A stretch of DNA of 64,000 nt from Deltaproteobacteria bacterium GWC2_42_11 (GCA_001797495.1 MGPS01000070.1:15879-79878), one strand, 5' to 3'. Shown: positions 5,317 to 63,266, numbered from the stretch's first letter. Numbers and translations are program-made. The notes: generated by a model from the sequence alone, not told the origin.

Positions 5317-6402
5317 GTGAGTCATAACTTTCAAAAAGACATTTCAGGCTGCGGTCTGATTGGTATTATAAATAAAGACCGTACGAGGATAAGCGGGAGT
5401 TTCGTAACTAAATCACTCTGCCTTATGAGGGACAGGGGGAATGGACTTGGCGCTGGTTATGCAGCATACGGCGTGTATCCCAAATATAAAGACCTGTATG
5501 CATTCCATATAATGTATGACGAACCGTCTGCGCAGAGGGATACAGAAGAATATTTAAAGAAAAATTATTATATAGAGAAAAAGGAACCGATGCCGACAGC
5601 GCCTGTGGAGGGTATTAAAATCCACCCCATCCTGTACAGGTATTTTGTAAAGCCTCTGTCAGAAAAGGCTGAAAGGGAATCTGCTGAACTGGAGGACGAC
5701 GACTTCGTTGTAAAGACTGTCATGAAAATAAACTCCGAGATAGATGGCGCATATGTGTTTTCCAGCGGCAAGGATATGGCAGTGTTCAAGGGTGTTGGTA
5801 TGCCAGGTGAGATTGCAAGGTTTTTCAGGATTGACGAATATGAAGGTTATATATGGACAGGACATACGAGGTTTCCGACAAATACTCCCGGCTGGTGGGG
5901 CGGGGCGCACCCGTTTACACTCCTTGACTGGTCGATTGTCCATAACGGGGAGATTTCTTCATACGGTATAAACAAGAGATACCTCGAGATGTATGGTTAT
6001 AAACTCACACTCCTGACAGATACAGAGGTTGTTGCGTATCTTTTTGACCTGCTTGTCAGAAGGCATGGTCTGGATGTGCTAACTGCATGCACAGCACTTG
6101 CAGCACCCTTCTGGAAAAATGTTGATACCATGCATGATGAAGAAAAAGAAGCGATGACCGCTTTAAGGGTGATATACGGGAGTGCATTGCTGAACGGTCC
6201 TTTCTCAATACTCTTCGGGCATAAGAATGGTCTTGTCGGTTTTAATGACAGGATTAAACTGAGGCCCCTTGTCGCTGCGACAAAAGGGAAAACCGTCTAT
6301 ATGGCTAGCGAGGAATCTGCCATAAGGGAGATATGTCCTAGCCCTGAAAAGATATGGTCGCCTAGGGCAGGCGAGCCTGTGATTGTTGAGTTGGAGAGTT
6401 AA
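5317..6402 (+). CDS. Class II glutamine amidotransferase domain protein (archaeal-type glutamate synthase large-subunit domain 1)
   Basis: The GCGLIGI Ntn-hydrolase nucleophile region and a GATase-2 fold pattern are present. A GTG start follows a GGAGG RBS. Confidence 0.7.
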   Translation: MSHNFQKDISGCGLIGIINKDRTRISGSFVTKSLCLMRDRGNGLGAGYAAYGVYPKYKDLYAFHIMYDEPSAQRDTEEYLKKNYYIEKKEPMPTAPVEGIKIHPILYRYFVKPLSEKAERESAELEDDDFVVKTVMKINSEIDGAYVFSSGKDMAVFKGVGMPGEIARFFRIDEYEGYIWTGHTRFPTNTPGWWGGAHPFTLLDWSIVHNGEISSYGINKRYLEMYGYKLTLLTDTEVVAYLFDLLVRRHGLDVLTACTALAAPFWKNVDTMHDEEKEAMTALRVIYGSALLNGPFSILFGHKNGLVGFNDRIKLRPLVAATKGKTVYMASEESAIREICPSPEKIWSPRAGEPVIVELES

Positions 6403-6478
6403 TGAGTTTAGGAGTTAGAGAGTAAAAACTCCTTAACCCCAGAACTCCTCAACTCCTTAACTAATTTTGGAGGTTTAA

Positions 6479-9435: not shown

Positions 9436-9616
9436 TTTCCCCTGCTATGTTCGTGATTAGCAGAATATTCAGAACCAACACCATCAAATAGGGAGCCTTC
9501 CCTGACTGACAGCCGACAATCCTGCTGGACGGGAAGTCGAAAGCAGTTAATTAAGGCACCCACCTATTTTATAGGTTCGAATAGACTGCTGACACGGCAT
9601 TACAGCGGGGGAGATA
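9436..9616 (+). ncRNA. ssrS: 6S RNA (ssrS)
   Basis: It lies between zapA and 5-formyl-THF cyclo-ligase, as in many bacteria. The 5' end UUUCCCCUGCUAUGUUCGUG pairs with the 3' end CACGGCAUUACAGCGGGGGAGA to form a closing stem. An internal ACCUAUUUUAUAGGUUCGAAUAGACUGCUGAC region resembles the E. coli 6S central-bubble flank. Length is ~180 nt. Confidence 0.75.
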
Positions 9617-9977: not shown

Positions 9978-10583
9978 GTGGACACTGCTGCAAATGATAA
10001 GAGTGCCTTGCGAAATGTCATCCTTCTAAAGCGTATAAAAATGTCTTTTGAAGATGTGTTCAGGATAAGCAGCATAATTCAGAAAAGATTTTTGCGATTA
10101 AACTCATACAAGACTTTTAAAAAACTGGCGCTTTATGCAAGTTTTAAAAATGAGGTGCTTACAGATAGTATAATGAACCATGCGATTGCTAATGGTAAGA
10201 ATGTGTATTTCCCAAAGGTTGTCAATGAATATAAAGGGCATAGAGGACTCAAGTTTGTAGAAGTTAAGGGAAAGAATGATTTTGAGCCGGGCTCATACGA
10301 TATCCATGAACCAGTTGGTAAATGCGATATGCCAGATATCAAAAAATTTGATACTGTTGTTGTGCCGGGCATAGCATTTGATATTTCTGGCAGCAGGCTG
10401 GGTTATGGCAAGGGCTATTATGATAAGGTTCTGTTTGGTCTAAAGGGATATGCAATACTAATCGGTCTTGCATTTGATTTTCAGGTTGTAAAAACACTAT
10501 CTACTGAAAGTCACGATGTTAGTATGGATATGATAATAACAGAAAGACGGATAATCAGAACAGGTAATAATTTTAGGTTATAA
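9978..10583 (+). CDS. ygfA: 5-formyltetrahydrofolate cyclo-ligase
   Basis: The GYGKGYYDK motif is present, with the ...VVVPGIAFD pattern. Position after ssrS matches E. coli synteny. The true start may be the internal Met (MSFEDVF). Confidence 0.75.
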   Translation: MDTAANDKSALRNVILLKRIKMSFEDVFRISSIIQKRFLRLNSYKTFKKLALYASFKNEVLTDSIMNHAIANGKNVYFPKVVNEYKGHRGLKFVEVKGKNDFEPGSYDIHEPVGKCDMPDIKKFDTVVVPGIAFDISGSRLGYGKGYYDKVLFGLKGYAILIGLAFDFQVVKTLSTESHDVSMDMIITERRIIRTGNNFRL

Positions 10584-12175: not shown

Positions 12176-12959
12176 TACTGTCAACTGCCTCTTTATCGGC
12201 GATATTATAGGCAGACCCGGCAGGATTGCCGTGAGAGATTATCTGCCTACCCTGACTGCCAGATATTCTACTGATATTGTGCTTGCAAACGGTGAGAATG
12301 CAGCAGGGGGGTTTGGTATTACACCTCAGATCGCAGAAGAACTTCTCAATTCAGGTATAGATGTTATAACATCAGGCAACCATATTTGGGACAAGAAGGA
12401 GATTATTGATTATATAAAGGACAGGAAGTGGCTTATGAGACCTGCAAATTATCCTCCCAATGTCCCTGGTTCTGGCTCAACTATATTCAAAACAAAAAGA
12501 GGTTATAATATTGGAGTTGTTAATCTTTGCGGCAGGGTTTTTATGGATGCCCTTGACTGTCCTTTCAGGGTTGGAAAGGAAATAGTTGAATCAATGAGAG
12601 AAAAAACAAATATAATTATTGTTGATATGCATGCAGAGACCACATCAGAAAAGGCTGCGATTGCATTTTATCTGGATAGTATGGTAAGTGCAGTTATTGG
12701 GACGCATACCCATGTTCAGACAGCAGATGAAAGGATACTCCCAAACGGCACTGCATTTATAACAGATGCCGGCATGACAGGTTCTGTAAATTCTGTAATA
12801 GGCATACAAAAGGATATTATAATCCAGCGGTTTTTAACCCAGATGCCGAAAAAATTTGAGGTTGAAACAAAGGATATTGAACTTCAGGGTGTTGTGATTT
12901 CAATAAATGTTGAAACAGGTCTTGCAAATAGCATCGAAAGGATTAAAATAAAAGTCTGA
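12159..12959 (+). CDS. ymdB: YmdB-family metallophosphoesterase (2',3'-cyclic-nucleotide phosphodiesterase)
   Basis: The sequence FIGDIIGRPGR...GENAAGGFGIT...GNHIWDKKE shows the TIGR00282 pattern. The gene overlaps the rny stop, the usual rny-ymdB pairing. Confidence 0.85.
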   Translation: MIMPDNTVNCLFIGDIIGRPGRIAVRDYLPTLTARYSTDIVLANGENAAGGFGITPQIAEELLNSGIDVITSGNHIWDKKEIIDYIKDRKWLMRPANYPPNVPGSGSTIFKTKRGYNIGVVNLCGRVFMDALDCPFRVGKEIVESMREKTNIIIVDMHAETTSEKAAIAFYLDSMVSAVIGTHTHVQTADERILPNGTAFITDAGMTGSVNSVIGIQKDIIIQRFLTQMPKKFEVETKDIELQGVVISINVETGLANSIERIKIKV

Positions 12960-14174: not shown

Positions 14175-14372
14175 TAGTTTTTCTGGTGCGATTTTATATA
14201 GAGCGTCATAAATAATTACGCATCATAATCAATAAAACACAAGTATTTAATGCGTTTTATTTAAGCCATCAAATAGGTGATGGAGTTCACCTTTAACCGC
14301 TTTAATGGCTGATGACTCCTACAAATTATTGGGAACAGATTTAAAATCTGTCCCCAAAAGGAGGAGGCTGAC

Positions 14373-22861: not shown

Positions 22862-22996
22862 TTATAAATAATTCCTAAATCCTAATATCTAATTTCTAAT
22901 AAAATATCCAATGACTAAATTTCCAATGCCTTTATCTTTGACATTTGACATTTTATTAGGAATTAGGATTTAGAAATTAGACATTTTATTAGAGGC
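22862..22996. repeat. Large imperfect palindrome between nadE and ftsE
   Basis: ctaaatcctaat pairs with attaggatttag, and tctaatttctaataaaat pairs with attttattagaaattag. The arms flank a ~45-nt centre. Confidence 0.5.
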
Positions 22997-22997
22997 A

Positions 22998-24785
22998 TTA
23001 ATAACTTCTATACCTGTTTGTTATCGGCATCCTCCTGTCTTTGCCCAGTGCACGCGGTGTTATTTTTATTCCGGGAGGCGATTGTCTCCGTTTGTATTCA
23101 GAGGCATCAACCATCCTTATAACCTTTTTCACAATACCTTTATTAAAACCCATTGCCGCTATATCTTCAAATGATTTATCTTCTTCCACATAAGTCCTTA
23201 ATATGGAGTCAAGGATTTCGTATGGCGGCAGTGTATCCTGGTCAGTCTGGTTCGGGCGGAGTTCTGCAGTAGGTGCCTTTCTTAAAACCCTTTCAGGGAT
23301 TAACACATTAATTTTGAGTTTTGACCCCTGCTTGAAACCTGCAAGGGCAAGGTTTTGAGTTTTGAGTTTATTTCTGTATTCAGCAAGTTTATAAACAAGT
23401 GTCTTGGGCACATCCTTTATGACAGCAAAGCCGCCTGCCATATCGCCGTAGAGTGTGGCATAACCTACACTCATCTCGCTCTTATTGCCTGTTGTAAGCA
23501 CAAGCCATCCAAATTTGTTAGAAAGAGCCATCAGGATATTCCCTCTTATTCTTGCCTGTATATTTTCTTCTGTGACATCAGGTTTAATTTTTTTAAATGT
23601 TTTGGAGAGCGTGGTTAGATATTTTTCAAATGTTTCCTGAATGGGGATGGTAAGGAACTCAATCTCCATATTCTTTGCAAGGTTTTCTGCGTCCTCTGAA
23701 CTTGCCCCTGACGAGTACATGGAAGGCATAAATACACCTGTAACATTACTCTTACCGAGCGCATCAACTGCTATTGCAGCGACAAGGGATGAATCTATGC
23801 CGCCGCTTAAACCAACAACAGTATGACTAAAACCATTTTTCCTGACATAGTCCTTAGTGCCCAGGGTAAGTGCCTTATATACCTCTTCAATCTGTTCAGG
23901 TGGATTTATAGGTACTTGAGCCAGCCTTTTTAATTTTTTTCTCTTTCCTGGTTTTGTGTGGAGGACTATCTCTTTCACCTTTTTTATTTCTACTTCAAGG
24001 ACAATCTTTTCCTTTCGTTTCCTCGGGTCGTGCAAACTGGCATTGAATATCCCTTCAACATCCAGTTCAGCGGTTATGAAGTCTTCCTCAAATGCCTTAC
24101 CCCTTGCAATGATATTACCTTTTTCATCCGCTATCATTCCCTGTCCATCAAATACGAGTTCGTCCTGCCCACCCACCATATTATTATAGACAACTATCAC
24201 ACCGTTGTCAGCAGCCCTGGCAGCAATCATCTCCTCCCGGAACCGTGCCTTACCCATATGATACGGAGAGGCGTTTATATTTACAATAACCTCTGCCCCT
24301 GCAAGAGATTGAACCCTTGCAGGTCCTTCAGGGTGCCAGATGTCTTCACATATACCTATCCCTATTGTGATACCATTGAGGACAATGTTCAGTGGTGTCT
24401 TGCCTGCATGGAAGTACCTCTCCTCATCAAATACACCGTAATTAGGGAGAAACATCTTGTGATATACCCCTGCTATCTCACCGTTGTGTATAACAGCAGC
24501 AGCATTGTAGATATCTCCCATACTGTCAACAAAACCTACAATTGCGGTGATACCCTTTGTTTTTCGTGCTATTTTCTTTATAAATGTTATGTTTCCTTTT
24601 ACAAACTGCGGCTTTAAGAGGAGGTCTTCAGGTGGATAGCCAGTGATGGCAAGTTCAGGGAATACAATAAGGTCTATGTCAAGCCCGATTGCCCTGTCAA
24701 GAAATCCTGATATCTTCTCTGCATTACCCCTTAGGTCGCCAACAGTAGGGTTTATCTGTGCCATTGCAATGCGGAGTGCACCCAT
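22998..24785 (-). CDS. nadE: Glutamine-dependent NAD+ synthetase (CN-hydrolase + NAD synthase domains)
   Basis: An N-terminal nitrilase-like domain and a C-terminal SGGIDSS P-loop are present. Start is taken at MGALRIAMAQ; the track ORF begins 16 codons earlier. Confidence 0.85.
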   Translation of the reverse strand: MGALRIAMAQINPTVGDLRGNAEKISGFLDRAIGLDIDLIVFPELAITGYPPEDLLLKPQFVKGNITFIKKIARKTKGITAIVGFVDSMGDIYNAAAVIHNGEIAGVYHKMFLPNYGVFDEERYFHAGKTPLNIVLNGITIGIGICEDIWHPEGPARVQSLAGAEVIVNINASPYHMGKARFREEMIAARAADNGVIVVYNNMVGGQDELVFDGQGMIADEKGNIIARGKAFEEDFITAELDVEGIFNASLHDPRKRKEKIVLEVEIKKVKEIVLHTKPGKRKKLKRLAQVPINPPEQIEEVYKALTLGTKDYVRKNGFSHTVVGLSGGIDSSLVAAIAVDALGKSNVTGVFMPSMYSSGASSEDAENLAKNMEIEFLTIPIQETFEKYLTTLSKTFKKIKPDVTEENIQARIRGNILMALSNKFGWLVLTTGNKSEMSVGYATLYGDMAGGFAVIKDVPKTLVYKLAEYRNKLKTQNLALAGFKQGSKLKINVLIPERVLRKAPTAELRPNQTDQDTLPPYEILDSILRTYVEEDKSFEDIAAMGFNKGIVKKVIRMVDASEYKRRQSPPGIKITPRALGKDRRMPITNRYRSY

Positions 24786-25018: not shown

Positions 25019-25142
25019 GCAATGGATAATGGTCTACGCTTGCAATAAATTTATCCTGTAATAAATCCTGTAATAAATTTATCCTTGACAACTTGAGTAG
25101 AATTGTATTATGAATTAACACACAATTTAATATAGATATATG

Positions 25143-25259
25143 CTTATTCAGAGTGGTGGAGGGACTGGCCCTGTGAAACCACAGCAACCGGCCTGTTGCA
25201 AACGGGCGGCAGGTGCTAACTCCAGCAAGGTTTGTGATTAAAAAGCCTTGAAAGATAAG
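25143..25259 (+). promoter_or_regulatory. SAM-I (S-box) riboswitch
   Basis: P1 pairs CUUAUUCAGAG with CUUGAAAGAUAAG. Conserved cores GGUGGAGGGACUGGCCC, GUGAAACC, CAGCAACC and GGUGCUAACUCCAGCA are present. Confidence 0.85.
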
Positions 25260-25274
25260 ATTAGGTAATAAAAG

Positions 25275-29562: not shown

Positions 29563-29587
29563 GACAACATTCTGCGAATGTTGAATT

Positions 29588-29687
29588 GTAAATTGAAGAT
29601 TGGAAGTTGGAAATTTTAAAATGGAATAAAAAGACAATTTGCAATTTAAATTTTACAATTTTCATTTTACAATTAGAGCGAAGCGAC
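29588..29687 (+). repeat. 105-bp duplicated leader element, copy 1 (upstream of mec)
   Basis: Near-identical to 30083-30197. It contains tandem gaagattg/gaaaattg octamers, then ttgcaatttaaattttacaattttcattttacaattagagcgaagcgac ending at the start codon. Confidence 0.7.
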
Positions 29688-29688
29688 C

Positions 29689-30099
29689 ATGCTTTATCTA
29701 TCTAAAGACATATATAACGAGATTATCAGCCATGCTGAGAAATCATACCCTTATGAAGGATGCGGTGTTCTTGTAGGCAGGGATAAGAGGGTTGTGAAGA
29801 TTTGTCCTGTTGAGAACATAAACAAAGACAGGGCAAATGACAGGTATGAGATAGACCCAAAGGATTTGCTCAGGGTTGAGAAAGGGGTGTCCGAAAAAGG
29901 GCTGAATGTCCTTGGGTTTTTTCATTCACATCCTGACCATCCTGATATGCCGTCTGAGTTTGACAGACAAAGGGCATGGCAATTTTATTCGTATATGATT
30001 GTATCTGTGCATAATGGAAAATCTGTTTCAGTAAAATCATGGACATTTGAAGATGAAAATGAACCATTCAGAGAGGAGGAGGTAAAGATTGAAGATTGA
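29689..30099 (+). CDS. mec: JAMM/MPN+ metalloprotease (Mec-like sulfur-carrier peptidase)
   Basis: EGCG...HSHPDHPDMPSEFD JAMM motif. Confidence 0.8.
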   Translation: MLYLSKDIYNEIISHAEKSYPYEGCGVLVGRDKRVVKICPVENINKDRANDRYEIDPKDLLRVEKGVSEKGLNVLGFFHSHPDHPDMPSEFDRQRAWQFYSYMIVSVHNGKSVSVKSWTFEDENEPFREEEVKIED

Positions 30100-30197
30100 A
30101 AATTGAAAATTGGAAATTGGAAATTTTAAAATGGAATAAAAAGACAATTTGCAATTTAAATTTTGCAATTTTCATTTTACAATTAGAGCGAAGCGAC
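30083..30197 (+). repeat. 105-bp duplicated leader element, copy 2 (upstream of E1-like gene)
   Basis: See copy 1. The 5' part overlaps the last codons of mec. Confidence 0.7.
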
Positions 30198-38000: not shown

Positions 38001-38975
38001 ATGTCAAAAGGACCTATTTCAAAATTTATTGAGACGCATTATCTGCACTTTAATGCTGCTGTGCTTGTGGATGCTGCGAAGGCATACGAGTCGCATATAA
38101 ACGAACGCGGAAAGATGATGATAACCCTTGCAGGGGCAATGAGCACTGCGGAACTCGGGAAATCTCTATCTGAGATGATACGAAAGGACAAGGTTCATAT
38201 TATTACATGCACAGGTGCTAATATTGAGGAGGATGTCTTCAATCTTGTGGCACATAATTACTATAAGAGGGTTCCGCATTACCGCGAGTTAAGTCCTGAT
38301 GATGAGTGGAATCTTATGCAGGATGGTTTCAACCGTGTAACTGATACCTGTATTCCTGAAGATGAGGCAATCAGGAGGATAGAGCGCCATATATTTGACC
38401 TGTGGAAGGACGCTGACAGAAGCGGCAAAAGATATCTGCCCCATGAATATTTTTATCAGTTGTTGAAAAGCGGGGTATTAAAACAATATTATCAGATTGA
38501 CCCAAAAGACTCATGGCTTCTTACTGCATGTGAAAAGAACCTTCCTGTTATTGTGCCGGGCTGGGAAGATTCAACACTCGGAAATATCTTTGCCTCATAT
38601 TGTGTAACAGGCGAGTTAAAAGCGGTTACTGTAAAATCAGGGATAGAATACATGGTATCTCTTGCTGACTGGTACATGGAAAATTCAAAGGGGAAGGGAA
38701 TCGGCTTTTTCCAGATAGGAGGAGGTATTGCAGGTGATTTTCCAATATGTGTTGTGCCCATGCTTAGGCAGGATCTGAAAAAGGCTGATACACCTTTCTG
38801 GAGTTACTTCTGCCAGATTTCTGATTCCACAACAAGTTACGGCTCATATTCCGGCGCAGCGCCAAATGAAAAGATAACATGGGGTAAGTTGAGTAAAAAT
38901 ACACCAAGATTCATCATTGAATCAGATGCGAGTATAGTTGCACCGCTTGTGTTTGCATGGGTGCTGGGATGGTAA
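38001..38975 (+). CDS. Deoxyhypusine synthase-like protein (homospermidine synthase-like)
   Basis: Deoxyhypusine synthase family pattern (GAMSTAELG...ITCTGANIEED...GGGIAGDF). Confidence 0.65.
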   Translation: MSKGPISKFIETHYLHFNAAVLVDAAKAYESHINERGKMMITLAGAMSTAELGKSLSEMIRKDKVHIITCTGANIEEDVFNLVAHNYYKRVPHYRELSPDDEWNLMQDGFNRVTDTCIPEDEAIRRIERHIFDLWKDADRSGKRYLPHEYFYQLLKSGVLKQYYQIDPKDSWLLTACEKNLPVIVPGWEDSTLGNIFASYCVTGELKAVTVKSGIEYMVSLADWYMENSKGKGIGFFQIGGGIAGDFPICVVPMLRQDLKKADTPFWSYFCQISDSTTSYGSYSGAAPNEKITWGKLSKNTPRFIIESDASIVAPLVFAWVLGW

Positions 38976-39140
38976 AATAGTTAACGTTGAAAATACCCCG
39001 GCCCATTGCTTTGCAATGGGTGCCCCGTGCGTTGTCGCTGCGGCTTCTGCGCTCAACATACTGCAAAAGTATGCCCCCCGACAGTTTCAATCGGGGGTTT
39101 GCTCCGCCTTGCAGATGGGCAATTTTTGAGCGTCAACTAC
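38976..39140 (+). repeat. Dispersed intergenic repeat family R2, full-length copy
   Basis: aatagttaacgttgaaaatacccc...cccattgctttgcaatgggtgccccgtgcgttgtcgctgcggcttctgcgctcaacatactgcaaaagtatgcc...ttgctccgccttgcagatgggcaatttttgagcgtcaac. Confidence 0.7.
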
Positions 39141-39174
39141 CAATAAAATGTATTGTTAAGAGGTAGAGTATATA

Positions 39175-40131
39175 ATGTCTTCTTATCCTTTAAGTGTAAT
39201 GCACAACTTCGGCGGTCTGGATGAGAAGGCATCCTCATTCAAAAAGGCAAAGTTTGTTGTCCTGCCTGTTCCGTATGATATGACAGCATCTTATCAGAGC
39301 GGGACAAGAAAAGGTCCGTATGCAATCATTGATGCGTCAACCCATATGGAATTATATAATGAGGAACTGGACATAGAGGCATATAAGGTCGGGATACACA
39401 CAATGCCTTATCTGGAGCCAACCTCAAAAGGTCCTAAGGAGATGGTGGATATTGTTTATGAGGCATCCAGCTATATAGTGAACTTAGATAAAATTCCGGT
39501 TATGCTCGGCGGTGAGCACAGTATAACCCTGGGGCTTGTCAGAGCGCTTAAAAAAAAATATCCGAATATGTCTGTTCTTCAACTGGATGCACATGCAGAC
39601 ATGAGGGATAAATATCAGGAAAGCCCGTATAACCATGCGTGTATTGCAAGGAGAATATCAGAGATGTGTCCGATTGTTCAGGTTGGCATAAGGAGTTTAA
39701 GTGTTGAAGAGGCAGAGTTCTTAAAAAAGGGGTTGGAACACAGAACACAGAAGTCAGAAAAAACGCATCACGCATCACACATCACGCATCACAGTATCCA
39801 TACCTATTTTGCAAAGGATATTATAAGAGGCATCCCTGTAGAGGATATATGCAGTAATCTGACGAATGAAGTTTTTATTACCATTGACCTTGATGTGTTT
39901 GACCCTTCAATTATGCCTGCAACAGGAACCCCTGAACCAGGAGGGTTGATGTGGTATGAAGTGACGGGATTATTGAGGAACATTGCTGCTAAAAAAGAGA
40001 TAATCGGTTTTGATGTGGTTGAGTTGTGCCCGCTGGCAGGTAATTTATCTCCGGATTTCCTTGCTGCAAAACTTGTTTATAAGATGATGGGATATATAGT
40101 AAAAGACAAAAAAGCAGACTATAGACTTTAA
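39175..40131 (+). CDS. speB: Agmatinase / arginase-family ureohydrolase
   Basis: Arginase-fold Mn-ligand motifs are present (GGEHSIT, DAHADM, DLDVFDPS). It carries a His-rich insertion encoded by a nucleotide repeat. Confidence 0.8.
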   Translation: MSSYPLSVMHNFGGLDEKASSFKKAKFVVLPVPYDMTASYQSGTRKGPYAIIDASTHMELYNEELDIEAYKVGIHTMPYLEPTSKGPKEMVDIVYEASSYIVNLDKIPVMLGGEHSITLGLVRALKKKYPNMSVLQLDAHADMRDKYQESPYNHACIARRISEMCPIVQVGIRSLSVEEAEFLKKGLEHRTQKSEKTHHASHITHHSIHTYFAKDIIRGIPVEDICSNLTNEVFITIDLDVFDPSIMPATGTPEPGGLMWYEVTGLLRNIAAKKEIIGFDVVELCPLAGNLSPDFLAAKLVYKMMGYIVKDKKADYRL

Positions 40132-40187
40132 AGTAGACCATAGACTAAAGACTAAAAAGTCTAAAGTCTATAGTCTAAAGTCTAAAC
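40112..40187. repeat. TAGACT palindromic repeat element (family R3), copy C
   Basis: gcagactatagactttaaagtagaccatagactaaagactaaaaagtctaaagtctatagtctaaagtctaaac. It supplies the last codons and stop of speB. Confidence 0.65.
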
Positions 40188-40206
40188 AAGAAGGAGGACT
40201 TGAAAA

Positions 40207-40755
40207 GTGAGCATGGTGCCAAGAAGGGTATTCTTTACAAAGGGTGTAGGGACGCATAAGGAAGAACTCCATTCCTTTGAACTCGCGCTCAGGGATGCAG
40301 GCATAGAAAAACTCAATATCGTAACAGTCTCCAGCATATTCCCGCCGGGCTGTAAGGTTATTTCAAGAACTCAAGGATTAAAGATGCTTTCCCCCGGTCA
40401 GGTAACATTCTGCGTGATGAGCAGGTGCTGCAGTAACGAGCCCAGGAGGCTCATGGCAGCATCCGTAGGGTGTGCAATACCAATGGATAAAAAGGTATAT
40501 GGATACTTAAGCGAGCACCATGCCTTTGGCCAGACTGATAAGTTTGCAGGCGACTATGCAGAAGACCTTGCTGCAGCAATGCTTGCCTCCACACTGGGTA
40601 TAGAACTTGATGAGAACCTTGGGTGGGACGAGAAGAAAGAGATTTACAGGATAAGCGACAAGATAGTAAGAACAACAAACATCACGCAGTCGGCAATAGT
40701 AAAGGGTGACGGCAGGTATACAACCGTGATTGCTGCTGCTGTACTTATTCTTTAA
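40207..40755 (+). CDS. pdaD: Pyruvoyl-dependent arginine decarboxylase
   Basis: About 180 aa. The N-terminal pattern FFTKGVG...[27 protein letters not shown] matches the archaeal-type PdaD family. Confidence 0.65.
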
Positions 40756-41681
40756 TGGCAGATTTTTTCGACCTGGCGATAGCATGGGAATGGGAGTATG
40801 ACAGGGATTTCGTATGCAGTATTGACAGGGAGTGTCAGAAAAACATGCTAAGCAGTTATCTTATTTATCCGGCAAATCTTAATGAAACGCTTAATCTGCA
40901 GGCAGAAGGTAAGATTGCATTCAGGATGCTTTTTGACCGTGCATCAGACACAAACCCCAAGTTCCATGATATTATACATTTTGCAAAGAGATTCCCTTTC
41001 AAGATGGTAAATGAGGTATCTCTTTTACCAAGGGCAGTTGACAAGGCAACCATGCACCTTGAGTTTATTTCAAACGGTATCAATGTCCCTTACACGATAA
41101 TACTTTCGCCGTGGCAGAAGAATCAAGAGATTTATACCATGATGAAACTTTCTGACTTTAAAAAACTTGGTATGCCGTTTATAATAAAACCTGCACACGG
41201 CGGCGGCGGCGTTGGTGTGGTTATCGATGCAAGGACAATACAGGAGGTAGTAAAGGCAAGGATGGAAATTGCACATGATAAATATCTGCTGCAGGAGAAG
41301 ATAGTACCTGTATTTCTTGGCAAAGATTTGAGCCGCAAGGCATGGTTCAGGGTATTTTATGTATGCGGTGAGATAATCCCATGCTGGTGGAATAATGAAA
41401 CCTTCATTTACAACATGATAACATCTGATGAGGTAAAAAAGTATGATTTTTCAGAACTGCATGATATAACTAAAAAGATTGCAGATATATGCGGCCTTGA
41501 TTTTTTCTCTACAGAGATAGTAAAGGTGAAAGATGGCAGATTTATTGTTGTAGATTATGTAAATGATATGTGCGATATGAGAAGGAAATCCAGATACCCC
41601 GATGGTGTGCCTGATGAGGTAGTGGGAAAAGTTATTAAAAGACTTGTCAGATATGTGAAGGAAAATGCCAAGAAGGATTAG
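40755..41681 (+). CDS. ATP-grasp domain protein of unknown specificity
   Basis: The central IIKPAHGGGGVGV and downstream acidic residues are typical of ATP-grasp ligases. The start overlaps the pdaD stop (TAATG). Confidence 0.5.
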   Translation: MADFFDLAIAWEWEYDRDFVCSIDRECQKNMLSSYLIYPANLNETLNLQAEGKIAFRMLFDRASDTNPKFHDIIHFAKRFPFKMVNEVSLLPRAVDKATMHLEFISNGINVPYTIILSPWQKNQEIYTMMKLSDFKKLGMPFIIKPAHGGGGVGVVIDARTIQEVVKARMEIAHDKYLLQEKIVPVFLGKDLSRKAWFRVFYVCGEIIPCWWNNETFIYNMITSDEVKKYDFSELHDITKKIADICGLDFFSTEIVKVKDGRFIVVDYVNDMCDMRRKSRYPDGVPDEVVGKVIKRLVRYVKENAKKD

Positions 41682-41698
41682 ACATTTAGTAAATTAGC

Positions 41699-42721
41699 AT
41701 GAATGTTGCCATAACATACAACATAAAAAAGAAAGAGACTTTAACAGAGAATCTCCCCCCTGATTTTTATGCTGAATGGGATGATGATGAGACAATAGAC
41801 GCAATAAGGGATGCTGTCTCAAAAAGGCATGAGGTGGTTTTAATAGAGGCAGATAAAGAGGGGTATCAGAAACTTGTAAAAGAAAAACCTGATATGGTTT
41901 TTAATATTGCAGAGGGCATTAACGGCAGAAACAGGGAATCCCATATCCCTGCCATGCTGGAGATGCTCGGGATACCATATACAGGTTCAGGTCCTCTGAC
42001 ACTTGGCATCTGCCTTGATAAGGCAAGGGCAAAAGAGATACTCTCTTATTACAATATTCCAACTGCCAGATTTTTTGTATCACACTCAGCGCTCAGCGCT
42101 CAACACTCGGCGCTCTCCTTCCCCCTCATTGTCAAACCCCTTTATGAGGGTTCAAGTAAGGGCATAAGGAATGACTCTATAGTCTATAATATTGACGACC
42201 TCAATAAAAAGACTGAATGGGTCATTAACGAATACAGGCAGCCTGCCCTTGTCGAGGAATTCCTTGATGGGAGGGAGTTTACAGTCGCCGTGATGGGCAA
42301 TGGTGATGAAGTAAATTGCCTTCCTATTGTTGAAATAAATTATTCAACACTCCCTGAAGGGGTAAACCCGATTTATTCCTATGAAGCAAAGTGGCTATGG
42401 GATACACCTGATAACCCGCTGGAGATATTCACCTGTCCGGCACAGATAGAAGCCGAATTAACCCAGAGGATAGAAGAGATATGCAAAAGGGCGTTTCAGG
42501 TTCTGGACATCAAAGACTGGTGCAGGATAGATATAAGACTGGATGGTAAAGGTACTCCGCACATCCTGGAACTTAATCCGCTGCCGGGGATACTGCCTGA
42601 CCCTAAAAGTAATTCATGTTTTCCAAAGGCAGCAAGGGCTGCTGGCATGGATTACAATAGACTTATAAATACAGTACTTGATATTGCGTGTAAGAGATAT
42701 GGTATTTATGGCAACCGCTGA
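41699..42721 (+). CDS. D-alanine--D-alanine ligase family ATP-grasp protein, paralog 1
   Basis: Ddl-family motifs (GIPYTGSGPLTLGICLDK, LIVKPLYEGSSKGI, the ELNPLPG region) are present. The family tolerates an in-frame SALSAQHSALS repeat insertion. Confidence 0.65.
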   Translation: MNVAITYNIKKKETLTENLPPDFYAEWDDDETIDAIRDAVSKRHEVVLIEADKEGYQKLVKEKPDMVFNIAEGINGRNRESHIPAMLEMLGIPYTGSGPLTLGICLDKARAKEILSYYNIPTARFFVSHSALSAQHSALSFPLIVKPLYEGSSKGIRNDSIVYNIDDLNKKTEWVINEYRQPALVEEFLDGREFTVAVMGNGDEVNCLPIVEINYSTLPEGVNPIYSYEAKWLWDTPDNPLEIFTCPAQIEAELTQRIEEICKRAFQVLDIKDWCRIDIRLDGKGTPHILELNPLPGILPDPKSNSCFPKAARAAGMDYNRLINTVLDIACKRYGIYGNR

Positions 42722-43733
42722 AAAAATTACCATAACATACAATGACGATTTAGATATTGGAAGAAGGGATATTGATTGCTCAATTTCCTGCGAGGGGGTT
42801 ATTGATACAGCGATGTCCGTAAAAAAGGCGATAGAAGGGGGTGGTATAACTTTGGTACTTGTTCCATTGGAAGATAACCCTTATGCATTTATAGATACGC
42901 TCCGCCGAAGTGCACCCGATATAATCTTTAACCTGTGTGAAGGGGCATTAGGTTTGAGTTCAATGGAGATGAATGTGGCTTCTTTCTATGAACTGTTTGG
43001 CTTCAGATATACAGGTTCAGGACCTTTGACATTAGGTTTGTGCCTTAATAAGGGACTTGCCAAAAACATATTGTGTGCAAACAGCGTCCCGACGCCTGCA
43101 TATACTGTTGTTAAAGGCACAGGTTTACTTGCAGATATCGGCATAAATTTTCCGCTTATTGTAAAGCCTCTGCAGGAAGATGCAGGTATAGGCGTGGACA
43201 GCAGTGCGGTTGTGCACGATACCGAATCACTTAAAAAGAGGGTCCAATATATATTAGATGTTTGCAAACAGCCTGCACTGGTTGAGGAGTATATTAACGG
43301 GAGGGAATTCAATGTATCGGTCATGGGCAATGGAGATGATTTAAGGGTATTGCCTGTTTCGGAGATAGATTTTTCAGGACTGCCTGAAGACATGCCTCGT
43401 CTGGTTGGCTATGAGGCAAAATGGGTTGCCGCAAGCATATCTTATAAGAATACAGTACCTGTATGCCCTGCAAAGGTATCAGAAGATTTAAAAGAAAGGC
43501 TGTCGTCTATAGCAGTAAAGGCTTACAGGTTGATGGGCTGCCGTGATTATGCCAGGGTTGATATAAGGATGGGAAAGGATAATGTGCCAAAGGTGCTTGA
43601 GGTTAACCCCAACCCTGACATATCGCCTGATGCAGGTATTGCAAGAAGCGCTTTTGCAGCGGGAATGACCTACAGCACACTCATACATGAGATAATAAAA
43701 TGTGCCATGAGCAGATACGGCTGTAATGAGTGA
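42708..43733 (+). CDS. D-alanine--D-alanine ligase family ATP-grasp protein, paralog 2
   Basis: Same motif set as paralog 1 (GFRYTGSGPLTLGLCLNK, LIVKPLQEDAGIGV, EVNPNPD). Overlaps paralog 1 by 14 nt. Confidence 0.65.
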   Translation: MATAEKITITYNDDLDIGRRDIDCSISCEGVIDTAMSVKKAIEGGGITLVLVPLEDNPYAFIDTLRRSAPDIIFNLCEGALGLSSMEMNVASFYELFGFRYTGSGPLTLGLCLNKGLAKNILCANSVPTPAYTVVKGTGLLADIGINFPLIVKPLQEDAGIGVDSSAVVHDTESLKKRVQYILDVCKQPALVEEYINGREFNVSVMGNGDDLRVLPVSEIDFSGLPEDMPRLVGYEAKWVAASISYKNTVPVCPAKVSEDLKERLSSIAVKAYRLMGCRDYARVDIRMGKDNVPKVLEVNPNPDISPDAGIARSAFAAGMTYSTLIHEIIKCAMSRYGCNE

Positions 43734-53697: not shown

Positions 53698-53774
53698 TGG
53701 GGTGAGCGAGGGGATTTGAACCCCCAGCCCTCGGAGCCACAGTCCGATGCTCTAACCATTGAGCTACGCCCACC
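53698..53774 (-). tRNA. tRNA-His (GUG) with encoded G-1 and CCA
   Basis: The reverse complement folds as a cloverleaf: acceptor GGUGGGCG..CGCUCACC, anticodon loop CUGUGGC, T-arm GGGGGUUCAAAUCCCC, 3' CCA. Confidence 0.9.
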
Positions 53775-56789: not shown

Positions 56790-58072
56790 GTAAACTTCTA
56801 ATAAAAGGCGGGCATGTTGTTGACCCTGCAAATGGGATTGACGGGATATTTGATGTTTATTGTGTTGACGGCAAAATCGTTGAAATCACGCATCACGCAT
56901 CCCGCATCACGCACAACGATTGCACTGTCATAGATGCAACGGGTCTTCATGTTTTCCCGGGTTTTATTGACATGCACACGCATTTAAGAGAGCCGGGCTA
57001 TGAATATAAAGAGGACATAAGAACAGGCACAATGGCAGCAGCAGCAGGAGGTTTTACATCTGTTGCATGTATGGCAAATACTGACCCTGTTAATGACAAT
57101 TCATCTGTTACAAGATATATCCTGAAAAAGGCACAGGAAGAGGGTATTGTAAATGTCTTTCCTGTTGGTGCAGTAAGTAAAGGTTTAAAAGGTGAGATAC
57201 TTGCAGAGATTAGCGATTTGAAAGATGCGGGATGTGTTGCGATTTCAGATGACGGCAAGCCTGTTTCTGACAGCAGGTTGATGAGGCTGGCACTGGAATA
57301 TTCAAAACCTTTTAATCTGCCTGTTATATCCCACTGCGAGGATTTAACCCTTGCAGGGGATGGTGTTATGAACGAAGGTTTTATTTCTACAAAACTGGGT
57401 TTAAAGGGCATCCCGAATGCAGCAGAGGATATTATGGTTGCAAGGGATATTGCCCTTGCAGAACTTACACACGGGAAACTGCACATTGCCCATGTATCTG
57501 CATCTGGGAGTGTTGAACTTATAAGAAATGCCAAGTCAAGAGGTGTAAATGTTACAGCAGAGGTTACGCCGCACCACTTTACACTAACAGATGAATGTGT
57601 AACCGGCTACAACACCAATGCAAAGATGAACCCTCCGCTTCGCAGTATTAGTGATATAGAGGCATTGAAACAGGGGCTTAAACACGGAACAATAGATGTC
57701 ATTGCAACAGACCATGCACCACAGAATGCTGATGAAAAGGATGTGGAATTTGATAAGGCAGCAAACGGTGTTGTTGGACTTGAGACTGCATTCTCACTTT
57801 CTTTAAAACTCGTTTCAGACGGGCTTATTTCATTATCTGTCCTGATTGAAAAAATCTCTCTAAACCCTTCAAGGATTTTAGGGCTTGATAAAAAAGGCTC
57901 TCTAAAAGTCGGCAATGATGCTGATATAACGATTGTGGATTTAAATAAGGAATGGTTTGTTGATGTAAATAAATTAAAATCAAAGAGCAAAAATACTCCG
58001 TTTGAAAACTGGAAGATGAAAGGTAAAGTTGTGAAGACAATAGTTGGAGGGAAGGTGGTGTATGAGGGATAG
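56786..58072 (+). CDS. pyrC: Dihydroorotase (multifunctional-complex type)
   Basis: [10 protein letters not shown] metal-binding motif. It contains an in-frame CATCACGCATCACGCATC repeat coding [10 protein letters not shown]. Confidence 0.85.
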
Positions 58073-59240
58073 GAATAAGGCAGTCCTTGCACTTGCAGAC
58101 GGCACTGTATTTGAAGGTTATTCATTCGGCGCTGAAGGTGAGTCAATAGGTGAGGTAGTTTTCAATACCTCAATGACAGGGTATCAGGAAATTTTAACTG
58201 ACCCGTCTTATAAAGGACAGATTGTTACAATGACCTATACCCAGATTGGAAATTACGGGATAAATAGTGAGGATATTGAATCAGCAAGACCATGGATTGA
58301 AGGATTTATTGTAAAGGAATTTTGCCAATATCCAAGCAACTGGCGTTCAAAAGAGACTCTGGATAGTTATCTAAAAAGGCACAATATTGTTGGGATACAC
58401 GGAATAGATACAAGGGCTTTGACAAAGCATTTAAGGGATAATGGCGCTATGAATGGGGTTATATCAACTGTTGATTTGGACCCAGAAAGACTTGTTAAAA
58501 AGGCAAAGGGATTTCCATCCATGGCAGGGCTTGACCTTGCAAAAGAGGTAACATGCAAAGAGCCATATAAATTGAAGCAGGGTTTGTGGAATATAGAAAG
58601 AGGTTACTCATCACTCAGCACTCATCACTCGCCACTCTATAAGGTGGTTGCATATGACTTTGGCATAAAATACAACATCCTCCGAAACCTTGTTAATGTC
58701 GGGTGTGATGTTACAGTTGTGCCTGCATGGACATCTGCTGATGATGTTTTGAAGATGAACCCGGACGGCGTATTCCTTTCAAATGGCCCCGGCGACCCTG
58801 ATGCAGTTAAATACGCAATTGAGAATGTGAGAAAACTCATTGGCAAAAAACCAATATTTGGAATCTGTCTCGGACATCAGATACTTGGGCTTGCTCTTGG
58901 CGGAAAGACATATAAACTAAAATTCGGTCATCGCGGGGGCAATCAGCCTGTTATGGATTTAACAACAAGAAAGGTTGAGATTACATCCCAGAATCACGGC
59001 TTTGCAGTTGATGTTAATTCTTTAAAAGGCATTGCTGAACTTACACATATAAACCTAAATGACAAAACAGTTGAAGGGCTTGCACACAAAAAACTACCGC
59101 TATTTTCTGTCCAGTATCATCCAGAGGCATCGCCAGGTCCGCATGATGCAAGTTATCTTTTCAAAAGGTTTGTGGATTTGATGGAGGGTAAATGGTCATT
59201 GAATTTAAGCCTTTCAATGCAGGCTTTGAAGAATGCTTAA
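58062..59240 (+). CDS. carA: Carbamoyl-phosphate synthase small subunit
   Basis: Class I GATase triad region (GICLGHQ). It contains an in-frame CTCATCACTCAGCACTCATCAC repeat. Confidence 0.85.
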
Positions 59241-59845
59241 AAGAGTTTAAAGACTATTTTATAAATGAGACATTTGCCGAAGAGATAAAACTTGCAAAAG
59301 AAGAATTTACAAATTCTGGCATAGATTTAAATGAGGGTGAGAATTATGAGGAAAGGCTTAGTATATTTTTTGACTGGTATCTGTTTGACAGACCATTGTC
59401 AGATACAAATCTAACCCCTGTCAGATATTTTGTTGAAACCCTTTCAAACAAAGGAGATATATACGATGGATTTTCAAAAACCATACAAAGCATATTTGTT
59501 ATAAAGCGGAGGGGTATTGGATATGTAAAGGTAAAGGATATGTTTACAAGAAAAAAATATATAGTGAATGGCGATAATCTTATAGGTTTTGAAAAGAGGG
59601 ATATAATGGAGGCAAGGCTTATCCCGTTTGAGAGGTCTTACAGATTTTCAGAGACATTCTGTTTTTATCCTGATGATATAAAGACTATGCTGAAAAAAGA
59701 GATAAAAGAGGCAAAAAAACAGGAAGAGGCAGACTTTTATCCTGTTTTATTAAAGTTTAGAAGATTAAAAACCATGTCAGAGAGATTTACAAGGATGGAT
59801 ATAAAAAAGGTTTATACCTTAATGGAGGAAGGATTGCTTGCCTAA
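59192..59845 (+). CDS. Hypothetical protein encoded between carA and carB
   Basis: A 217-aa ORF with no recognisable domain. It overlaps the carA 3' end by ~49 nt and its stop overlaps the carB start. Confidence 0.35.
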
Positions 59846-62800
59846 ACGAACTGACATAAAAAAAATACTCATCATCGGCGCGGGACCTATTGTCATAGGC
59901 CAGGCATGCGAGTTTGACTATTCAGGCACGCAGGCGTGCAAGGCTCTAAAAGAAGAGGGTTATAAGGTCATCCTCATCAACTCAAACCCTGCGACCATTA
60001 TGACTGACCCGGAGATTGCTGACAGGACATATATTGAGCCGATTACGCCTGAAATAGTTGAAAAAATCATTGAGAAGGAAAGACCTGATGCAATCCTTCC
60101 GACTATGGGCGGACAGACCGCGCTCAATACAGCGGTGGCTCTGGCGGAATCCGGCGTTTTGGAAAAATATCATGTTGAGCTCATCGGCGCTAAACTCCAT
60201 GCAATAAAAAAGGCAGAAGACAGGGAACTCTTTAAAGAGGCAATGGAAAGGATTGGTCTTGAGGTGCCAAGAAGCGGTTATGCAAAGACCCTGACAGATG
60301 CAATGAGTATAATGGAGACCATGGATTATCCTGCAATCATAAGGCCATCTTTTACACTCGGCGGCACAGGCGGCGGTATCGCATATAACAGCGAGGAATT
60401 TAAGGACATGGTTCAGTATGGACTGGATGCAAGCCCGTATAGCGAAATCCTCATTGAAGAATCTGTAATAGGCTGGAAGGAATATGAACTGGAGGTTATG
60501 AGGGATGGTAAGGACAATGTTGTTATTATCTGTTCAATAGAGAATTTTGACCCTATGGGAGTCCATACAGGGGATTCCATAACTGTTGCGCCTGCCCAGA
60601 CATTAACAGATAAGGAATATCAGATAATGAGGGATGCGGCACTCAAGATTATAAGGGAAATCGGTGTTGATACAGGAGGCTCAAACATCCAATTTTCTGT
60701 TAATCCTCAAAATGGGAAGATGCATGTGATTGAGATGAACCCCAGGGTTTCCCGCTCATCTGCACTTGCAAGCAAGGCAACCGGTTTTCCTATTGCAAAG
60801 ATTGCCGCAAAACTTGCGGTAGGATATACGCTTGATGAGATTCCCAATGACATAACAAAAAAGACACCTGCCTCATTTGAGCCGACAATTGACTATGTGG
60901 TCACAAAGGTTCCGAGGTTTACATTTGAAAAATTTCCTGAGGCGGATGCTATACTCACAACACAGATGAAGTCTGTGGGAGAGGTAATGGCAATAGGAAG
61001 GACATTTAAAGAGTCTTTACAGAAGGCACTCAGGTCGCTTGAGATAGGGAGTTATGGGTTTGAAGAAAGGGTTCAAGGGGTCGGGGGTTCAAGGGTTAAG
61101 GAAGAGATTACTGAAAAACTCAGGACACCTAATTGGGAGAGGCTTTGGTATATTGCAGATGCCTTCAGAGCAGGCATGACTGTTGATGAGATATTTGATT
61201 TATCAAAGGTTGACAGGTGGTTTCTGAATAATATAAGGGAGATTGTGGAGTTTGAGAGTGAGTTAGAGAGTTTAGGAGTAAAAGAAAAGACAGTTAAGGA
61301 GTCAACTCCTCAACTCCTCAACTCATTACGGCAGGCAAAAGAACTTGGATTTTCTGACAAACGGATAGCACAGTTATCAGGTAAAACCGAAGCAGAAATA
61401 AGAGAGGCGAGAAAACAGGCAGGGGTTGAGCCTGTATATAAGACAGTTGATACATGCGGCGCAGAGTTTGAGGCATATACACCGTATCTGTATTCTGCAT
61501 ATGAAAAACCATTTTATAGCATAGAGCATGGAGCAGAGAGCAAAGAGCAAAAGAAATATCCCTATGCCCTATGCCCTATGCCCTATGCGCTTACTGTTGC
61601 TTGTGAATCCAACCCCACCACCCGCAAAAAAGTCATAATCCTCGGCAGTGGTCCCAATAGAATCGGTCAGGGCATTGAGTTTGATTACTGCTGTGTCCAT
61701 GCAGCATTTGCATTAAAGGAAGATGGCATCGAGACCATAATGGTAAACTGCAATCCTGAGACAGTATCAACTGATTATGACACTTCTGACAGGCTCTATT
61801 TCGAACCCCTCACATTTGAAGATGTTATGAACATAATTGAAAAGGAGAAACCTTTTGGCGTTATTGTCCAGTTCGGCGGGCAGACGCCTTTAAAACTTGC
61901 AGTGTCTCTGGAAAAGGCTGGAGTAAAAATCCTCGGCACATCGCCTGATTCCATTGATATCGCAGAAGACAGGGAAAGGTTTGACAAACTCCTCACAAAA
62001 CTAAATCTAAAAAGACCTGAAAGCGGCATTGCCCGTTCAATTGATGAGGCAATAAAGGTTGCAAATAAAATTGGGTATCCTGTTATGGTAAGACCTTCCT
62101 ATGTACTCGGCGGAAGGGCGATGGAGATAGTCTATACAGAGGAGAGTTTAAAGGACTACATGAAAAGGGCTGTTGAGGCATCCCCTGAACACCCTGTCCT
62201 GATTGATAAATTTTTAAACAATGCAACAGAGGTGGATGTTGACTGCGTTTCTGATGGTAAGGATATTGTTATTGGTGGTATTATGGAGCATATTGAAGAG
62301 GCAGGCATACATTCAGGTGATTCGGCATGCTCAATACCGCCGTATTCTCTTGATTTAAATATCATTGATGAGATAAGAAGGCAGACAATTTTGCTTGCAA
62401 AAGAATTAAATGTAATAGGACTAATGAATGTCCAGTTTGCAGTGAAAAAAAATCCCCCCATCCCCCCCTTTGAAAAAGGGGAGATTGAGGGGGGATTAAA
62501 CAAGGGGCAAGGGTCAGAAATATATGTTCTTGAGGTTAACCCAAGGGCATCAAGGACTGTTCCATTTGTAAGCAAGGCAATAGGAAAACCCCTTGCAAAG
62601 ATTGCTGCAAAGGTTATGGCAGGTAAGACCCTTAAGGAATTAGATTTCACAAAAGAGATTGTGCCAGGGCATATTTCTGTAAAGGAATCTGTCTTTCCAT
62701 TTATAAAATTTCCGGGTGTTGATACGATCCTTGGTCCTGAGATGAAGTCAACAGGAGAGGTAATGGGCATAGATAAAGATTTCGGCAGGGCATTTGCAAA

Positions 62801-63266
62801 GGCACAGATTGCAGCAGGGACAAAACTGCCACCCCCACCTTTATCCTCCCCCTTAAAGGGGGAGGGGAGGGGAGGGGGCAAGGTTTTTATAAGCGTAAAA
62901 GATGAGGATAAACAAGAGGCCATATCAGCGGCAAAACGGCTGAGGGAGATGGGCTTTGAGATAGTTGCTACAAGCGGTACAGGAAAATATTTAAAAGATA
63001 ATGGGGTTGATACAGAGTTTGTATATAAGGTTGGAGAGGGAAGGCCGCATATAGTGGATAAGATAAAAAGCGGCGATATTGCTATGGTTATAAATACTTC
63101 ATTTGGTGCAAAGGCAGTTAAGGATTCCTTTTCAATAAGAAGGTCAGCGCTTGTCTATGGTGTGCCTTATTTTACAACGATTTCAGGCGCAAAGGCAGCA
63201 AGCCTTGGTATAGAGGCACTCATAAAAGAGGGCATGGGAGTAAAGCCGCTGCAGGAATACAATTAA
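59838..63266 (+). CDS. carB: Carbamoyl-phosphate synthase large subunit (with several short in-frame insertions)
   Basis: Two ATP-grasp halves and an MGS-like domain are present. It is collinear with E. coli CarB except for insertions at 61559-61586, 62446-62515 and 62844-62865. Confidence 0.9.

Follow-up and report, generated by a model that had tools for sequence, protein, structure and literature searches.

How did the same short repeat come to lie in frame in three different genes of one bacterium? We looked into this question in a stretch of 64,000 nucleotides from Deltaproteobacteria bacterium GWC2_42_11 (here, the window). The original prediction was that a frame-neutral repeat family had been inserted in frame into a Ddl-like gene, carA and a TPR lipoprotein gene. 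The three strings on which it was based are all present in the window, and their translations are correct. Each site consists of five tandem 7-nt units on the plus strand, with xACTCxx as the unit common to all three. In the Ddl-like ATP-grasp gene (41699-42721, plus strand, 340 aa; Pfam Dala_Dala_lig_C), the array occupies positions 42083-42117 and reads CACTCAG CGCTCAG CGCTCAA CACTCGG CGCTCTC. The array of carA, the gene for the carbamoyl-phosphate synthase small subunit (58044-59240, plus strand, identified by alignment to E. coli CarA), lies at 58605-58639 and reads TACTCAT CACTCAG CACTCAT CACTCGC CACTCTA. That of the TPR lipoprotein gene (2133-3134, plus strand) lies at 2203-2237 and reads TACTCAT AACTCTA AACTCAT CACTCAT CACTATT. 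The Ddl-like and CarA proteins are each 100% identical to a protein of Deltaproteobacteria bacterium GWC2_42_11. TRF called a period of 7 at all three sites, and the predicted nucleotide-level direct repeats are indeed read in frame.

We compared the occurrence of these strings with expectation across the window. The string CACTCANCACTCA, allowing at most one mismatch, had six matches in four arrays where 0.23 were expected, and none of 100 shuffles reached six. The 11-mer CTCATCACTCA occurred twice (0.00 expected), and CAGCGCTCAGCGCTC occurred a single time. These results confirm that the three-site repeat is real and highly non-random, and that its recurrence in three genes goes beyond chance.

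The repeats are also frame-neutral, as had been proposed: a CACTCAN tandem contains no stop in any of its seven circular codons, whichever base stands at N, while a TGA appears in the reverse complement. Successive units of a tandem heptamer pass through all three reading frames, and such an array can therefore persist in an open reading frame only if its seven circular codons are free of stops. Because the reverse complement of CACTCAN has TGA, every genic copy lies on the coding strand. It follows directly from the sequence that a strand-specific insertion mechanism would be superfluous as an account of the orientation of the arrays.

The claim that the arrays were inserted held for one of the three sites. 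In the Ddl-like gene, a search for a net insertion relative to orthologues gave 0 aa. Measured from IPT to VKP, the window has 28 aa, as do the closest outgroups (L005, L010 and L011), and among more distant orthologues many also have 28 aa, within a range of 27 to 30 aa or more. The array encodes HSALSAQHSALS, and the 13 array-coded residues have the same length as the non-repeat outgroup segments ARTSSLEIEKYLS and SETANLDFGKYLS; the window's array-coded SHSALSAQHSALS stands in place of a non-repeat segment such as SETANLDFGKYLS. In the AlphaFold model, residues 129-142 form a coil between the strands at 125-128 and 143-147, with a pLDDT of about 66 compared with 85.7 overall.

In carA, the array lies in a linker, directly before the strand (V)VAYDFG. 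The segment that it encodes aligns without gaps to the E. coli CarA linker segment LPQAKKEDELPF and is about 1 to 3 residues longer than in orthologues lacking the repeat. Its pLDDT was about 63, in a CarA model that was mediocre as a whole (mean pLDDT of 74) and from which we used only local confidence and secondary structure. The deposited CarA protein, P0121, has 392 aa, and its start would fall six codons into the open reading frame given above. An insertion in CarA and the Ddl-like protein was considered and rejected, as comparison with solved structures shows substitution instead.

Among the three reported sites, only the lipoprotein array behaves as a net insertion, with 7 aa more (three units, +21 nt) than two distant orthologues, P0339 and P0340. 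It encodes NSSLIT within the signal peptide MNNVKCSVLSVQWLWVKGFLPLLLLITLNSSLITILAGC, upstream of the lipobox ILAGC. This array has an imperfect inverted copy at 2138-2172 on the minus strand, 35 nt upstream of its partner; read on the minus strand the copy contains CACTCAACACTGA, and the opening part of the lipoprotein open reading frame translates it as NVKCSVLSV. A fold of 2133-2240, which spans the two copies, had a z score of -4.2. We also considered a hairpin or RNA element at the two main arrays and rejected it (fold z = -2.15 for the Ddl-like array and +0.54 for the carA array). Rfam had no match at the arrays; its only matches in the window, to 6S RNA, a SAM riboswitch, a fluoride riboswitch and tRNA, all lie elsewhere.

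Heptamer arrays occur in further genes of the window. The agmatinase gene carries two adjacent in-frame arrays at 39736-39792 (plus strand), about three units of GAACACA followed by about four of CACGCAT, which encode EHRTQKSE and THHASHITHH; the relative L081 has (AAAACTC)5 at this site. The dihydroorotase gene (pyrC) carries an in-frame array of about four CACGCAT units at 56885-56913 (plus strand), which adds 3 aa compared with Aquifex PyrC, and the relative L166 has 17 more residues at the same site. Both the agmatinase and the dihydroorotase arrays coincide with array-bearing, length-variable sites in relatives. In carB, an inverted pair formed by an AGCATAG-like array and (CCCTATG)4 at 61518-61588 (plus strand; fold z = -3.9) lies inside an insertion of about 30 aa placed exactly between E. 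coli residues 549 and 550. The arrays of agmatinase, PyrC and CarB all fall at indel-prone sites. On the minus strand, the NAD synthetase gene has an in-frame AAACTCA array of about 2.6 units at 23352-23369. The genic arrays are confined to variable loops or linkers, where they are read through in frame as a peptide with a period of seven residues. Spacer arrays are usually inverted pairs that fold into long hairpins. One such hairpin at 40134-40186 (no strand assigned), formed from the inverted arrays (AGACTAA)n and (AGTCTAA)n, is a non-coding form of the same phenomenon; the fold of 40128-40192 had an energy of -19.2 kcal/mol and a z score of -6.1, and several other spacer pairs had z scores of -4 to -5.

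We next counted arrays of each period. The window holds 18 to 21 period-7 arrays compared with 0.4 to 1.3 in shuffles (18 versus about 0.4 by one scoring rule), and each of the other periods from 4 to 12 has between 0 and 4 arrays. TRF reported more than 20 different heptamer units in the window, and these are unrelated to each other (for example, AAGACTG, ATTAGGA, ATTGAAA, CACGCAT, GAACACA, CCCTATG and AAAGTCT). Across loci of the clade totalling 193 kb, we found 93 non-overlapping period-7 arrays and at most 21 for any other period. In the close relatives and the window, period-7 arrays are more than 40-fold over-represented and have many different units. Among 80 genomes with the Ddl-like gene, heptamer richness is limited to a few groups, and most genomes have none. 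The closest relatives (L001 to L003, about 42% G+C) carry 2 to 8 arrays per 10 kb and L081 is similarly rich; the other heptamer-rich loci belong to two of four Nitrospinota (L018 and L047), one member of the Bacteroidota and some Acidobacteriota.

These results indicate that the CACTCA-type repeats are one facet of a genome-wide heptamer burst in an uncultured groundwater bacterium. The idea of one shared repeat family was not borne out: the three sites have nothing in common beyond the 7-nt unit, and their flanks are unrelated. What exists instead is a collection of heptamer arrays across the whole genome, built from many units. With at least three head-to-tail copies, a period-7 excess and, in relatives, rapid unit turnover, the arrays qualify as heptanucleotide simple sequence repeats (SSRs). 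At the two main sites, we found no shared sequence beyond the unit, no conserved ends and no palindromic structure of the kind expected of RPE- or MITE-like elements. Nor do the arrays look like phase-variable contingency loci, which switch surface, restriction or virulence genes: their hosts are carA, pyrC, carB and the genes for agmatinase and an ATP-grasp ligase, and among the cluster members examined we found no allele that was frameshifted at an array.

The site in the Ddl-like gene allowed us to follow one array across relatives. Orthologues at 67 to 79% identity carry five-unit arrays in the same register that are built from other units: CACTCTC in L081, where (CACTCTC)5 is perfect, CACTCAC in L001, AACTCTC in L165, CACATCT in L162, AAATCCG in L163 and ACATCCC in L170. 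The original prediction had named residues shared among orthologues as the outcome that would speak against it, and the alignments went part of the way there: several relatives encode HSPLSTLHSPLS or HSPLATHHSPLS where the window encodes HSALSAQHSALS. Peptides at this one site can be chemically very different (NPKSEIRNPKS versus HSPLSTLHSPLS). All arrays at the site share TC at positions 4 and 5 of their central units, and the last unit of every one is xxxTCTC (ATCTCTT in L162; ATATCTC in L170), overlapping the codons of a conserved Leu-Ser. At the Leu-Ser position, the outgroups without an array have AAATATCTCTCA (L005) and CGGTATCTCTCC (L010). The presence of the non-repeat form TATCTCTC in outgroups at the position of the 3' unit suggests a local seed for the array. 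Since the last unit overlaps the Leu-Ser codons and outgroups have TATCTCTC there, the alignment suggests that the array arose on the spot from a local 7-mer and then extended across the loop.

The carA linker also carries different units in relatives: AACTCCG in L167, AATCCGC in L168 (as (AATCCGC)4), CACGCAT in L169 and CATTCCG in L166. A metagenome scan based on the CarA alignment was of little use for the hotspot, as the relatives among the matches listed had at most 71% identity; the close relatives for the hotspot comparison were retrieved individually.

We then looked at how fast the arrays change. Only relatives were informative here; no variation in length or unit was seen for the window's own arrays, which counts against the microsatellite reading. 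Between the Ddl-like alleles of L163 and L170, identity is 97.8% outside the array and 68% inside it, plus a 6-nt indel. The three central units of the two alleles differ at the same two unit positions (AAATCCG versus ACATCCC), and these parallel unit substitutions are, on the evidence of this allele pair, concerted evolution. Within protein clusters of at least 90% identity, hotspots have been replaced wholesale (for example, ISNPKSEIRNPKS versus CTTSRIPHPIS), and there are three different CarA linkers. Between L170 and L171, an N-terminal hotspot is 39 nt longer in L170, which has a palindromic array pair there that is absent from L171, at 98% flank identity. Length differences between alleles or orthologues comprise 21 nt (lipoprotein), 6 nt (L163 and L170) and 39 nt (L170 and L171). 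The 6-nt indel is not a multiple of 7, which counts against simple slippage. The 39-nt difference resembles gain or loss of an element more than slippage of units.

Array lengths over the 193 kb of clade DNA pile up at 30 to 35 nt, with very few above 36 nt, and the longest perfect runs in the clade are exactly five units; longer arrays are present in other phyla. This distribution is not the monotonic decay that simple slippage predicts. Within the clade, identical unit classes occur at non-orthologous loci in 38 pairs compared with 5.6 expected. CACGCAT, for example, recurs in four different genes, and AAGGCTG occurs three times within 5 kb of L163. Such recurrence would also fit copying between arrays. 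We considered a heptamer vocabulary shared across phyla, which would have hinted at a horizontally spread agent, and rejected it (11 unit classes shared versus 9.2 expected, with a simulation maximum of 18). In an essential gene, gaining or losing a single unit shifts the reading frame, and homogenisation without a passage through dead alleles is a difficulty for the microsatellite reading.

Taken together, we consider it probable that the arrays are hypermutable heptanucleotide microsatellites that are born and re-homogenised in place and filtered by reading frame, stop codons and structural tolerance. An array would arise in place by tandem duplication of a local 7-mer and would then extend through a loop in which selection acts on length. 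Afterwards it would be re-homogenised continually, by replication slippage, intra-array gene conversion or template switching, the last of which would also yield inverted partner arrays and hairpins. Selection would act as a filter, such that housekeeping genes keep only in-frame, stop-free arrays in tolerant segments. The encoded peptide would be a passenger and not a functional module, and the occurrence of CACTCAN in three genes would reflect the small, biased unit set of the genome and not the copying of one element.

The closest rival to microsatellites born in place is what had first been proposed, namely a mobile, frame-neutral repeat family of the RPE or MITE type that inserts in frame into unrelated genes, with CACTCAN as one such family. 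The recurrence of one unit in several genes of a genome and the narrow array size of about 35 nt fit this picture, as do the 7 aa added by the lipoprotein array. It is also consistent with the net insertions with palindromic pairs, which we observed at carB (+30 aa), in the Ddl-like loop of L164, L003 and L002, which holds an inverted array pair, and at the N-terminal hotspot that distinguishes L170 from L171. Furthermore, a palindromic element of about 120 nt with heptamer arms is multi-copy and conserved between genomes. However, the Ddl-like array has caused no net length change relative to outgroups and the carA array only 1 to 3 aa; the copies share nothing past the 7-nt unit, and neither terminal structure nor a hairpin exists at the two main sites. 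Moreover, orthologues have other units in the same register, with the last unit continuous with the ancestral flanking codons, and units change by parallel substitution and not by replacement with a foreign block. We therefore regard a mobile family as unlikely.

An active, sequence-independent process could also be at work, one that, at defined sites, writes or re-homogenises five-unit blocks (5 x 7 nt, about 35 nt) together with inverted copies of them. A specialised polymerase, primase or recombinase would be a candidate, as would repeated footprints of 7-bp target duplication. If true, it would explain the five-unit ceiling, the recurrence of units across loci and the replacement of arrays between near-identical alleles. 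Because of the length ceiling, the recurring units and the odd indel sizes, a mechanism that is active or based on copying stays in consideration as a minority view; we judge the one described here distinctly unlikely.

We give a similarly low probability to the arrays being selected DNA or RNA cis-elements, in which a periodic binder (such as a cold-shock or S1-type OB-fold protein or a nucleoid protein) would recognise the 7-nt period and the roughly five copies, or in which these would tune translation or the stability of mRNA, with the genic copies functional as well. The size of about five units is kept in genes, spacers and relatives despite the change of units, and the intergenic inverted pairs, with z scores of -4 to -6, lie between co-directional genes as terminators or stabilisers do. 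For TAACTGA repeats, the binding of one heptamer per protein by CspB has been discussed, as have S1, Csp and CsrA as candidate binders (PMC4679880). However, dozens of units with a nearly unconstrained sequence leave no binding motif to be recognised, the two genic arrays lack significant structure, and the host genes are functionally unrelated. Arrays have been gained, lost or replaced between alleles with identities of 90% or more, which also argues against strong purifying selection.

Protein-level selection for a flexible linker rich in Ser, His, Pro and Leu, with the DNA periodicity secondary, is very improbable. In its favour, loops of low model confidence hold the peptides, which are small and polar, and the length of the Ddl-like loop is conserved. 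Perfect repeats such as (CACTCTC)5 in L081 and (AATCCGC)4 in L168 cannot arise from selection on amino acids, peptides at the same site differ as widely as the pair given above, and the same periodicity fills non-coding DNA. The nucleotide perfection of orthologous arrays already largely refutes this reading.

The clade offers a clean handle on heptamers, as arrays can be tracked at orthologous, length-constrained positions in conserved enzymes. Because the arrays lie inside such enzymes, the flanking codons give their exact register and the outgroup state. Exposed in this way are the proposed origin of an array on the spot from a local 7-mer, a concerted change of units by substitution at more than 10 times the rate of the flanks, and a size limit of about 35 nt. 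In essential genes, the arrays generate hypervariable loops and a frameshift load. They also call for caution in the annotation and phylogenetics of proteins from metagenome-assembled genomes (MAGs), as "insertions" of low complexity in CarA, CarB, PyrC and proteins like them are artefacts of the DNA repeats of this lineage. The clade is well suited to asking why a period of 7 is so common in prokaryotic DNA.

The class of array is itself already known, and the present case belongs with the heptanucleotide SSRs. In cyanobacteria, heptamers are known as short tandemly repeated repetitive (STRR) sequences; three tandem heptanucleotides occur in Calothrix PCC 7601, and mixed heptamer arrays occur in Microcystis. 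As in our window, a genome there has several heptamer units in dispersed, short tandem arrays. In contrast, the phylum and the units are different, and the in-frame occupation of conserved enzymes is not part of the description of the cyanobacterial repeats in the literature that we compared. None of the STRR units CCCCAGT, TTGGTCA and CAACAGT is among the array units of the window, and with other units and a deltaproteobacterial MAG as their source, the arrays fall outside the STRR class.

In 2007, Mrazek and co-workers described an over-representation of heptameric repeats in bacteria, for which a link to polymerase slippage has been proposed, according to the summaries in PMC4679880 and PMC4692102. 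In a SPADE survey of 7,006 genomes, heptamers were the most abundant intergenic tandem repeat, with "no clear clue" to their function (PMC6344855). Our arrays resemble these prokaryotic heptanucleotide SSRs in their period of 7, short length and scattered distribution over lineages; the known repeats are mostly intergenic, and slippage has been proposed for them. Unlike them, the arrays described here lie in frame in housekeeping genes at orthologous hotspots, are capped at about five units and show fast concerted turnover. In addition, the heptamer-rich lineages named in the literature that we compared do not include the uncultured groundwater "Deltaproteobacteria" clade (about 42% G+C).

Two well-described single-unit systems share some of these properties. 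The TAACTGA direct repeats of marine Beggiatoaceae occur in 2 to 6 copies just upstream of start codons and have one dominant unit, with related heptamers rarely repeated (PMC4679880). There, too, stop codons dictate the orientation relative to open reading frames, as the forward repeat terminates translation and the reverse is translatable (PMC4679880), whereas dozens of units occur in our clade and none is dominant. The GGGNATC repeats of Xanthomonas and Nostoc have G-quadruplex potential, are under-represented on the coding strand, prefer four copies and lie near the ends of open reading frames (PMC4692102). They share with our arrays the heptamer period, a favoured copy number (four in those repeats, about five in ours) and a location close to the ends of open reading frames, but the units here are mostly G-poor and cannot form a G-quadruplex.

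The Rickettsia palindromic elements are true insertions and form families of about 150 bp in which both the sequence and the encoded peptide are conserved (PMC10969869). Our arrays are similarly tolerated in frame in unrelated metabolic genes at permissive places. In contrast to the Rickettsia elements, they share only the 7-nt unit and mostly replace existing loop sequence. Relative to all of these systems, the in-frame hotspots in housekeeping enzymes, the concerted turnover of units and the ceiling of about five units appear to be new.

We compared the hotspot at the N-terminal end of the Ddl-like gene, an ATP-grasp ORF, between two loci from other genomes, positions 6030-6100 of the clade relative L163 and the corresponding part of L171 (alignment A5, columns 27-100). 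The genes differed there by 39 nt and were about 98% identical over the 750 nt downstream. This 39-nt difference is an in-frame palindromic pair of arrays, (AAGGCTG)n...(CAGCCTT)n, and the AAGGCTG unit was found at three loci inside 5 kb of L163.

Separately, we observed that the Ddl-like genes lie in a polyamine-related-looking cluster at 38001-43733, which encodes, in order, a deoxyhypusine-synthase-like protein, agmatinase, a pyruvoyl-dependent arginine decarboxylase, a RimK-like ATP-grasp protein and two Ddl-like ATP-grasp paralogues. The synteny of the cluster is kept in relatives, and its Ddl-like genes probably do not encode cell-wall D-Ala-D-Ala ligases.

The lengths of period-7 arrays were surveyed across 193 kb of clade sequence (the window and the related loci L001-L003, L081 and L162-L169). 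The lengths clustered at 30 to 35 nt, and perfect runs reached a maximum of five units. The distribution of unit counts was nonmonotonic, with 31 arrays of two units, 23 of three, 40 of four, 9 of five and 4 of at least six. L031 and L057, which come from other phyla, contain arrays of 9 to 13 units.

Inverted heptamer arrays also form the arms (TAATTCC... and ATTAGGA...) of a palindrome spanning roughly 120 nt at 22869-22985, the middle of which contains TTTGACATTTGACATTT. The clade relative L003 carries a near-identical version in reversed orientation, and of its two copies (10283-10392 and 12581-12690), the second has an extra GC-rich hairpin mid-element. The occurrence of the palindrome in the window and twice in L003 indicates that the element is multicopy and conserved between genomes; it could be MITE-like, give rise to a small RNA or act as a promoter element. 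Two nearly identical hairpins of about 100 nt each (29580-29680 and 30080-30190; fold z = -4.9 and -5.2 against shuffled sequence), with heptamer arms AATTGGA/ATTGAAA and ACAATTT, bracket a small ORF at 29689-30099.

Not every repeat hairpin in the window has period 7: at 6388-6462, in the spacer flanked by ORFs 5317-6402 and 6479-7990, the inverted pair GAGTTAGA and AACTCCTT has period 8. Rfam matches above the gathering score were a 6S RNA (9436-9615), a fluoride riboswitch (14267-14328) and a SAM riboswitch (25141-25261), all on the plus strand, and a tRNA on the minus strand (53701-53773).

The carB product (ORF 59838-63266) is 1142 aa long, whereas its E. coli counterpart has 1073 aa. Some 30 aa are inserted at 61509-61598, precisely at the junction of E. 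coli residues 549 and 550, and this insertion includes a pair of inverted heptamer arrays with a fold z-score of -3.9. Further carB arrays, with periods of 8 and 12, occur at 61067-61101, 61248-61271 and 61302-61324, the latter two falling at an 8-aa gap in the alignment with E. coli CarB.
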